This document shows, piece after piece, positions 47,601 through 50,600 of a stretch of DNA of 64,000 bases. Source of the stretch: Escherichia coli (GTDB lineage Bacteria > Pseudomonadota > Gammaproteobacteria > Enterobacterales > Enterobacteriaceae); the NCBI RefSeq assembly GCF_003334405.1, contig NZ_QOWM01000003.1; one strand, written 5' to 3'. Made by a program: the position numbers. How positions within the stretch are numbered: position 1 is the first letter of the stretch; each line of letters begins with the position of its first letter.

Positions 47601-50600
47601 ACCAAATCGACCATTATCTCGAAAGGGATCTCTGCCGGACATAGTCAGAACAGTTATCGCGGCTTAGTGAAAATCATGCCGACGGCAACCAATGCGCGCA
47701 ATTTCACTCAGTGCGACTCAATGCTGATTGGCGCTAATTGTGGGGCGCATACCTTCCCGTATGTTGAGTGTCGTAACAATAGTGCGCAACTGGAACACGA
47801 GGCAACGACATCACGTATTGGTGAAGATCAACTGTTTTACTGCCTGCAACGCGGGATCAGCGAAGAAGACGCCATCTCGATGATTGTTAACGGTTTCTGC
47901 AAAGACGTGTTCTCGGAGCTGCCGTTGGAATTTGCCGTTGAAGCACAAAAACTCCTCGCCATCAGTCTTGAACACAGCGTCGGATAAGGAATAAACATGT
48001 TAAGTATTAAAGATTTACACGTCAGCGTGGAAGATAAAGCTATCCTGCGCGGATTAAGCCTCGACGTTCATCCCGGCGAAGTTCACGCCATTATGGGGCC
48101 AAACGGTTCGGGCAAAAGTACCTTATCGGCAACGCTTGCCGGGCGAGAAGATTATGAAGTGACGGGCGGCACGGTTGAGTTCAAAGGCAAAGATTTGCTT
48201 GCGCTGTCGCCGGAAGATCGCGCGGGCGAAGGCATCTTTATGGCCTTCCAGTATCCGGTGGAGATTCCAGGTGTCAGTAACCAGTTTTTCCTGCAAACGG
48301 CACTTAATGCGGTGCGCAGCTATCGCGGCCAGGAAACGCTCGACCGCTTTGATTTTCAGGATTTGATGGAAGAGAAAATCGCTCTCCTGAAGATGCCGGA
48401 AGATTTATTAACCCGTTCGGTAAACGTTGGTTTTTCCGGCGGCGAGAAAAAGCGCAACGATATTTTGCAAATGGCGGTGCTGGAACCGGAGTTATGCATT
48501 CTTGATGAGTCGGACTCCGGGCTGGATATTGACGCATTAAAAGTGGTCGCCGATGGCGTGAACTCGCTGCGTGATGGCAAGCGCTCATTCATCATTGTTA
48601 CGCACTACCAACGCATTCTCGACTACATCAAGCCTGATTACGTTCATGTGCTATATCAGGGACGAATTGTGAAATCCGGCGATTTCACGTTGGTCAAACA
48701 ACTGGAGGAGCAGGGTTATGGCTGGCTTACCGAACAGCAGTAACGCGCTGCAACAGTGGCATCACTTGTTTGAAGCTGAAGGGACAAAACGCTCCCCGCA
48801 AGCACAGCAGCATTTACAACAATTGCTGCGTACCGGACTGCCGACACGTAAACATGAAAACTGGAAATATACGCCGCTGGAAGGGCTGATCAATAGCCAG
48901 TTTGTCAGCATTGCGGGAGAGATATCCCCACAGCAGCGTGATGCCTTAGCGTTAACGTTAGACTCCGTGCGGCTGGTGTTTGTCGATGGGCGTTACGTGC
49001 CCGCACTGAGCGATGCAACTGAAGGCAGCGGATATGAAGTGAGCATTAACGACGACCGTCAGGGTTTACCCGACGCTATTCAGGCGGAAGTGTTTCTGCA
49101 TTTGACGGAAAGCCTGGCACAAAGCGTGACGCATATCGCCGTGAAGCGCGGTCAACGGCCGGCAAAGCCATTGCTGTTAATGCATATCACCCAGGGCGTG
49201 GCAGGTGAAGAGGTGAACACTGCCCATTACCGACATCATCTGGATCTGGCGGAAGGTGCCGAAGCAACGGTGATCGAACATTTTGTCAGCCTGAATGATG
49301 CTCGTCATTTTACCGGGGCACGGTTCACTATCAACGTCGCAGCGAATGCCCACTTGCAGCATATCAAGCTGGCGTTTGAAAACCCGCTCAGTCACCACTT
49401 TGCTCATAACGATTTGTTGCTGGCTGAGGATGCCACCGCATTTAGCCACAGTTTCCTGCTGGGTGGCGCAGTGTTACGACACAACACCAGTACGCAACTC
49501 AATGGCGAAAACAGCACGCTGCGGATCAATAGCCTGGCGATGCCGGTGAAAAACGAGGTGTGTGATACCCGTACCTGGCTGGAACACAATAAAGGTTTTT
49601 GTAACAGCCGACAGTTGCACAAAACTATCGTCAGCGACAAAGGCCGCGCGGTATTTAACGGTTTGATCAACGTCGCGCAGCACGCCATCAAAACGGATGG
49701 TCAGATGACCAACAACAATCTGCTGATGGGCAAACTGGCGGAAGTGGATACGAAACCGCAGCTGGAAATCTATGCAGATGATGTGAAATGCAGCCACGGC
49801 GCGACGGTGGGGCGTATTGATGATGAACAGATATTCTATCTGCGCTCGCGCGGGATCAATCAGCAGGATGCCCAGCAGATGATCATTTACGCCTTCGCTG
49901 CCGAACTGACGGAAGCACTGCGTGATGAGGGGCTTAAACAGCAGGTGCTGGCCCGAATCGGTCAACGGCTGCCAGGAGGTGCAAGATGATTTTTTCCGTC
50001 GACAAAGTGCGGGCCGACTTTCCGGTGCTTTCGCGTGAGGTAAACGGTTTGCCGCTGGCTTATCTCGACAGCGCCGCCAGTGCGCAGAAACCGAGCCAGG
50101 TGATTGACGCCGAGGCCGAGTTTTATCGTCATGGCTACGCGGCGGTGCATCGTGGTATTCATACCTTAAGCGCCCAGGCGACCGAGAAAATGGAGAACGT
50201 GCGCAAGCGGGCATCGCTGTTTATTAATGCCCGTTCGGCGGAAGAGCTGGTGTTCGTCCGCGGCACGACGGAAGGGATCAATCTGGTCGCCAATAGCTGG
50301 GGCAACAGCAACGTGCGGGCGGGCGATAACATCATCATCAGTCAGATGGAGCACCACGCTAACATTGTTCCCTGGCAGATGCTTTGCGCACGCGTTGGCG
50401 CAGAGCTGCGTGTGATCCCGCTCAATCCCGATGGTACGTTGCAACTGGAGACGCTGCCTACGCTGTTTGATGAGAAAACTCGCCTGCTGGCAATTACTCA
50501 TGTCTCCAACGTGCTTGGCACAGAAAATCCACTGGCGGAAATGATCACGCTTGCGCACCAGCATGGCGCAAAAGTGCTGGTGGATGGCGCTCAGGCGGTG

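Follow-up and report, generated by a model that had tools for sequence, protein, structure and literature searches.

Do overlapping start and stop codons tell us that neighbouring genes are translationally coupled? The question is raised by a 64,000-nt stretch of Escherichia coli DNA (contig NZ_QOWM01000003.1 of assembly GCF_003334405.1; the whole stretch is referred to below as the window), in which six co-directional gene pairs overlap, two of them at the two ends of sufD in the sufABCDSE operon. An earlier note had listed these overlaps as pervasive and as signs of translational coupling, operon membership and stoichiometric co-expression. Our analysis shows that the overlaps are very probably the ordinary operon-internal start/stop overlaps of the E. 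coli chromosome, a feature that has already been published, and that the 26-nt overlap between sufC and sufD has to be considered separately from the five short ones.

The junctions were read directly from the window sequence, and all six overlaps (26 nt, four ATGA and 1 nt) are present exactly as claimed (Table 1). They are the only overlaps among the 50 same-strand neighbour pairs in the window. Four of the 21 close pairs have a spacing of exactly -4 nt (negative values denote overlaps), a count for which a flat null of distances gives a P of about 3e-4. The commonest gene-pair spacing in E. coli is -4, followed by -1 and -8 (PMC10666635; also PMC12548453); the four pairs thus represent the known genome-wide peak and no property of this window. 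Unidirectional pairs spaced -8 to +6 make up 707 of 2987 pairs (24%) in E. coli (PMC10666635) and 8 of 47 pairs of coding sequences (CDSs; 17%) in the window. As there is no enrichment, "pervasive" overstates the case: the frequency is normal for E. coli and describes the species rather than the locus. All six pairs are tabulated with the same distances for strain K-12 (Huber et al., 2023, Table S2; PMC10666635).

Table 1. Overlaps, genes and Shine-Dalgarno (SD) sequences in the window.
Feature	Position	Strand	Remarks
sufC/sufD overlap, 26 nt	48718-48743	+	sufC TAA at 48741-48743; sufD ATG from sufC Tyr-Gly codons (T ATG GC)
sufD/sufS overlap, ATGA, -4	49986-49989	+	direct reading
ydiJ/menI overlap, ATGA, -4	44877-44880	+	direct reading; Huber 2023 Table S2
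ydhX/ydhU (phsC) overlap, ATGA, -4	60161-60164	+	direct reading; Huber 2023 Table S2
ydiS/ydiT overlap, ATGA, -4	27825-27828	-	ydiS upstream; direct reading; Huber 2023 Table S2
btuE/btuD overlap, TAATG, -1	16949-16953	+	shared base 16951; direct reading
sufC CDS, 248 aa	47997-48743	+	RefSeq transfer; C-terminal codons conserved in 81/81 species
sufD CDS, 423 aa	48718-49989	+	100% identical to PDB SufD chains 2ZU0/5AWF
sufD SD, GGAGGAG	48704-48710	+	in sufC codons (CT)G GAG GAG; 7 nt before ATG
sufS CDS, 406 aa	49986-51206	+	RefSeq transfer
sufS SD, AGGAGG	49974-49979	+	in sufD C-terminal Gly-Gly codons, 6 nt before ATG; duplex -11.6 kcal/mol

The interval flagged in the earlier note (48718-49989) is exactly the sufD CDS, and we compared its two junctions between species. 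A scan with SufD, taking one genome per species, gave 80 Enterobacteriaceae loci with 73-97% SufD identity, and with the window the set comprises 81 species. The sufD ATG and its 26-nt overlap with sufC are found in 81/81. The last 13 sufC codons (LEEQGYGWLTEQQ and stop) double as the ribosome-binding site, the start codon and the first eight codons of sufD, which lies in the +1 frame relative to sufC. The sufC stop falls 23 nt past the sufD AUG, and the SufC tail reads LEEQGYGW at this point. For invariant SufC residues, the mean entropy at third positions falls from 0.96 bits in the 88 codons upstream to 0.28 bits in the 10 codons that reach from the SD to the stop (permutation P<1e-5; the lowest among all contiguous runs). 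The 81 species are related and hence non-independent samples, but the local contrast inside the same alignment controls for kinship. The sufC codons GAG GAG (which create GGAGGAG), TAT (which gives the AT of the ATG) and GGC show no variation in the 81 species, while Glu (GAA/GAG), Tyr and Gly codons mix synonyms freely elsewhere in sufC. The predicted duplex between the sufD SD and the anti-SD has an energy of -9.3 kcal/mol.

At the other end of sufD, its TGA and the sufS ATG overlap as ATGA in 81/81 species. The final sufD codon is always NNA (GCA, AGA, GTA or ATA), and the sufS ATG is thereby kept even though the encoded amino acid varies between A, R, V and I. GGAGG or GGGGG occupies the position of the sufS SD in nearly all of the species. 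Since neither the ATGA nor the 26-nt overlap varies, although synonymous sites and amino acids nearby do, the suf junctions themselves appear to be under purifying selection within the Enterobacteriaceae.

A side observation concerns the Cedecea/Buttiauxella group (loci L066-L071, L073-L079 and L081-L082), which carries a 6-nt insertion with the consensus GGCAAC right after the sufC stop, around locus position 2527. It adds Gly-Asn or Ser-Asn to SufD and occupies the first site beyond the part that encodes both proteins.

The overlaps would be annotation artefacts if some of the annotated starts were wrong and the real starts lay downstream and free of the preceding gene, as the earlier note had itself pointed out. 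Gene callers favour the most upstream start, and the annotated ATG is indeed the most upstream possible in-frame start in all six downstream genes. The sources also disagree on a start nearby (ydiT/fadK is +2 in the K-12 table and +56 in RefSeq). For sufD and sufS, however, the ATG, the SD and the synonymous sites are all conserved and no conserved alternative exists. We found no conserved in-frame sufD start either upstream or within the first 35 codons in the 81 species: an in-frame stop lies 8 or 16 codons upstream of the ATG in most of them, and the first downstream Met that is common among them occurs at about codon 36 and is missing from E. coli. SufD residues 10-20 (ALQQWHxLFE) are conserved as protein in the same 81 species. 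The sole nearby alternative to the invariant sufS ATG is a GTG at codon 8, present in 43/81 species.

The starts of btuD, ydiT, menI and ydhU were assessed by open reading frame (ORF) logic only. There is no alternative start before codon 42 in ydiT, codon 15 in menI or codon 18 in ydhU. In btuD an in-frame GTG is found at codon 4 and an ATG at codon 5, with no SD before any candidate start, and it is possible that btuD starts at one of these codons instead of the annotated ATG; even from codon 5 the gene would be closely spaced, +11 after btuE. The longest sufB ORF (ATG at 46461) would overlap sufA by 31 nt, where the annotation uses the ATG at 46500 (+8 spacing). This upstream ATG was uninformative as a negative control for conservation, since it sits in conserved Glu-Cys codons of sufA. 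Taken together, the annotation of the region is sound, and misplaced starts are a very improbable explanation of the overlaps.

How far back the two suf junctions reach could not be judged from a search for proteins homologous to SufD, which returned only close relatives (at least 68% identity, mostly at least 78%) and was uninformative for distant junctions. We therefore searched representatives of clusters at 50% identity and looked up eight contigs. At SufD identities to E. coli of 53, 47, 45, 42, 41, 39, 38 and 37%, the sufC/sufD spacing is -26, -26, -29, -26, -23, -1, -20 and +42, respectively. A long overlap (-20 to -29) is thus kept in six distant loci with 38-53% SufD identity. In all six, the sufD ATG lies inside the Gly-Tyr codons (GGN TAT) of a conserved SufC tail, EE(Q/K)GY, which is followed by GW in five loci and by AK in the sixth. 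The Glu-Glu codons give GAGGAR in four of the six, including both loci with 25-28% GC, and GAAGAA and AGAGGAG in the other two. Many distant SufD proteins start with M-(A/V/D)-G, as expected for codons 2-3 when TAT GGN TGG is read in the shifted frame. The Pfam order in the distant loci is SufBD/ABC_tran/SufBD/Aminotran_5/SufE. In contrast to the sufC/sufD overlap, the sufD/sufS spacing varies among the eight loci (+6, -1, -4, 0, -4, +4, -29 and +5), so that the long overlap is the older and more constrained of the two junctions of sufD.

The only detail of this work with some modest novelty is that a 20-29 nt sufC/sufD overlap persists down to SufD identities of about 38%. Together with the fact that the codons for the SufC C terminus also act as the ribosome-binding site of sufD, it is a small point that we did not find in the literature searched. 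It makes the sufC/sufD junction a clean natural case of C-terminal codons that serve as the ribosome-binding site of the next gene under strong synonymous constraint.

Turning to what the overlaps might do, the five short ones have the kind of junction that is most frequent in bacteria and belong to the -8 to +10 spacing class (btuE/btuD at -1; ydiS/ydiT, ydiJ/menI, sufD/sufS and ydhX/ydhU at -4), while sufC/sufD at -26 falls outside it. In a two-reporter system with mRNA controls, four of five native E. coli ATGA pairs were strictly coupled by termination-reinitiation, and their dependence on the SD ranged from essential to none (PMC6728339). The fifth, bioBF, is uncoupled and initiates de novo despite its ATGA (PMC6728339). 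An overlap of this kind therefore points to coupling but is no proof of it, and for the -4 and -1 junctions coupling is plausible, being indicated rather than proven by the geometry. Most likely, a ribosome that ends the upstream gene would reinitiate at the adjacent AUG, aided to a varying degree by an SD within the upstream gene. Judged from the predicted duplex strengths, this aid would be strong for sufS (Table 1), moderate for ydiT (-7.6 kcal/mol), menI (-6.4 kcal/mol) and ydhU (-5.6 kcal/mol), and absent for btuD, where the duplex is essentially none (-1.5 kcal/mol). As it lacks a recognisable SD, btuD appears to be the best candidate for obligate reinitiation.

The overlaps might instead be selectively neutral by-products of a compact genome, with each downstream gene initiated independently. 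They could arise readily by such a route, as an ATG followed by A makes a TGA in the upstream frame once the original stop is lost, and the abundance of the -4 motif has been proposed to reflect this ease of evolution (PMC12548453). The variable sufD/sufS spacing in distant relatives fits with neutrality, as do the de novo initiation of bioBF and the pair ydiJ and menI, which have no known functional link. Yet neutrality does not account for the invariance of both suf junctions within the Enterobacteriaceae while flanking synonymous sites, and even amino acids, change, and btuD has no SD from which to initiate independently. On balance we regard a purely neutral origin as unlikely.

The 26-nt overlap is a different matter. 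Coupling falls faster with longer overlap than with longer spacing and had disappeared at -25 in a systematic comparison (PMC12548453), and Huber et al. treat only -8 to +10 as predictive of reinitiation. The claim of translational coupling is thus plausible for the five short overlaps, which belong to a class where four of five tested pairs were strictly coupled, but the sufC/sufD overlap lies outside the efficient range, and here the coupling proposed in the earlier note is probably wrong in kind. A literature search on translational coupling with sufD found nothing. The geometry, the start sites and their conservation are direct observations, and from these we infer how the genes may be coupled and in what ratios they may be expressed. 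Given an SD that is strong, optimally spaced and deeply conserved, initiation of sufD would most likely be directed mainly by this SD within sufC. The passage of sufC ribosomes would keep the sufD site unfolded, and terminating sufC ribosomes that slide back may add a minor share of the initiation. The output of sufD would then be lower than that of sufC without being locked to it.

Several points speak against this picture. The absence of coupling at -25 was observed with synthetic constructs and may not carry over to a native, selected junction. A high opening energy (14.8 kcal/mol) is predicted at the sufD ribosome-binding site, where the E. coli sequence also folds better than its shuffles (z -2.7); according to these models, a strong dependence of sufD on sufC translation through RNA unfolding is possible. 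A search for a conserved masking RNA structure at the site revealed almost no covariation (RNAalifold, 30 species; one compensatory pair, covariation term -0.64), a result compatible with either the presence or the absence of such a fold. Overlapped starts and the other starts in the window did not differ clearly in accessibility (mean opening energy 9.8 and 8.8 kcal/mol, respectively). With regard to the short overlaps, the five pairs assayed in PMC6728339 are other pairs than those discussed here, and the cross-species data cover the suf junctions only, so that btuE/btuD, ydiS/ydiT, ydiJ/menI and ydhX/ydhU rest on annotation and the E. coli sequence.

The +1 frame of sufD relative to sufC would also allow for programmed +1 frameshifting within the overlap, with a fused SufC-SufD protein as the product, and database proteins with both ABC_tran and SufBD domains do exist (P0001, P0005, P0006 and P0008). 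These are single-member clusters whose ad hoc junctions or deletions differ. We saw neither a slippery nor a stimulatory motif in the overlap, and in the solved complexes SufC and SufD form distinct chains. We accordingly rejected the frameshift, which is exceedingly improbable. Looking at the fusions as such, the single-member clusters P0001, P0005, P0006, P0008, P0019, P0029 and P0104 hold SufC-SufD or SufD-SufS fusion ORFs, each with a different junction, produced by a frameshift or a deletion within or close to the overlaps, and most probably reflect errors of sequencing or sporadic mutants.

What remains is the claim that the overlaps support the operon assignments and stoichiometric co-expression. 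The first part is reasonable. No terminator or promoter fits between co-directional genes that overlap, in line with the operon assignments, and the suf operon has been described as one polycistronic unit (PMC6006206). The gene order sufA-B-C-D-S-E was confirmed by the RefSeq annotation of the matching region. Scanned for promoter and terminator consensus sequences, the suf region gave match counts at the chance level of shuffled sequences.

The second part is overstated. SufB, SufC and SufD form a 1:2:1 complex that is properly assembled upon expression from the intact operon (PMC6006206), and structures of SufC-SufD and SufBCD are available (PDB 2ZU0/5AWF). The manual curation of Huber et al. 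(2023, Table S2; PMC10666635) classifies only sufC/sufD as encoding subunits of one complex and labels the other five pairs "not"; BtuE/BtuD and YdiJ/MenI are not classed as partners (PMC10666635). Judged from their annotations, YdiS/YdiT and YdhX/YdhU are plausible redox partners. As the single complex pair requires SufC and SufD at 2:1, equal and locked translation of sufC and sufD is argued against, and "stoichiometric co-expression" is at best a partial description. According to a preprint on ribosome profiling in Salmonella, the stoichiometry of SufBCD is set mainly by translation efficiency. The lower output proposed above for sufD would fit with the 1:2:1 composition of SufBC2D.

Two ways in which the overlaps might control protein ratios should be considered. 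One is that all six couple translation tightly and so hold the synthesis of partner proteins at about 1:1, a view favoured by the binding of SufC and SufD to each other and by the high conservation of their overlap. It is quite unlikely to be correct, given the 2:1 ratio in the sole complex pair, the position of the -26 overlap outside the efficient reinitiation range, the absence of BtuE/BtuD and YdiJ/MenI from the classed partners, and a coupling efficiency that differs by gene, with one of five tested ATGA pairs uncoupled. The other is that the conserved 20-29 nt overlap is a selected ratio-setting device that holds SufD at about half of SufC synthesis, matching SufBC2D. A ribosome reaching the end of sufC would then block the sufD start, which lies 23 nt to its rear, or would reinitiate there only in part. 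We put this forward as a tentative and rather improbable idea. If true, such an overlap would differ from the 1:1 coupling usually ascribed to overlaps. The sufC/sufD junction could be used as a model for studying how a single mRNA yields subunits in ratios other than 1:1.

The wider region is E. coli chromosome. A 6-kb query around the flagged interval had a match in 5,425 of 5,426 complete E. coli genomes, and the window is collinear with positions 2175667-2239666 of E. coli NZ_AP019189.1 with 25 substitutions (single nucleotide polymorphisms) and no indels. Owing to the absence of indels, RefSeq CDS coordinates could be transferred one-to-one, and all of the CDSs thus placed are intact ORFs. 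The window spans from ydjM to ydhR and contains thrS-infC-rpmI-rplT, pheMST-ihfA, btuCED, ydiQRST-fadK, ydiJ-menI, sufABCDSE and ydhYVWXUT.

Further close junctions were also seen in the window. The infC gene starts with ATT at 9871, +3 after the thrS stop (9867/9871 junction), and was not listed in the earlier note; others are pheT/ihfA (+4) and ydhU/ydhT (+3). The start of fadK differs between sources (27478-27535). RefSeq/PGAP places it at the ATG at 27478 (minus strand, 548 aa), 56 nt after the ydiT stop, and the K-12 table of Huber et al. (2023) has ydiT/fadK at +2, which corresponds to an in-frame ATG at 27532 (TAAtcATG), 18 codons upstream. If fadK starts at 27532, ydiT/fadK is one more closely spaced junction.

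Rfam matches pointed to three RNAs. The small RNA (sRNA) rydB (81.6 bits) lies at 45741-45801 (+) in the 547-nt ydiH-sufA gap 5' of the suf operon and is missing from the RefSeq feature table of the matching record. The enterobacterial sRNA STnc540 (67.4 bits; 15198-15356, +) spans the 3' end of ihfA and the ihfA-btuC gap, right before the btuC start, and a "bacterial antisense RNA HPnc0260" (112 bits; 63793-63955, +) lies opposite a tRNA-Val gene and the region upstream of ydhR. An espL1-like type III effector gene at 5516-7415 on the minus strand is a frameshifted pseudogene in the matching RefSeq record.

The overall significance of these results is small, as they mostly amount to annotation quality control of textbook operon architecture, and they are best viewed against systems already described. 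The gene order is that of the E. coli sufABCDSE operon, which encodes the SufBC2D scaffold, and SufD is 100% identical to the crystallised protein. The classical cases of coupling by RNA unfolding or reinitiation (trpB/trpA, atpHA and rplJL; PMC12548453) likewise have the downstream ribosome-binding site inside the upstream coding sequence, where translation of the upstream gene can expose the site or bring ribosomes to it, but no conserved, covarying masking structure was found around the start of sufD. Five of the six pairs have the same co-directional ATGA or TAATG geometry as the pairs hyfHI, astDB and ydbH/ynbE, as well as menDH (Huber et al., 2019, 2023; PMC6728339, PMC10666635), and as in those pairs an SD of variable strength lies inside the upstream gene. 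The sufC/sufD junction differs from this class, as its -26 spacing is beyond the -8 to +10 range treated as predictive of reinitiation. The length of an overlap therefore matters, and 26 shared nucleotides are not the same kind of coupling signal as an ATGA.

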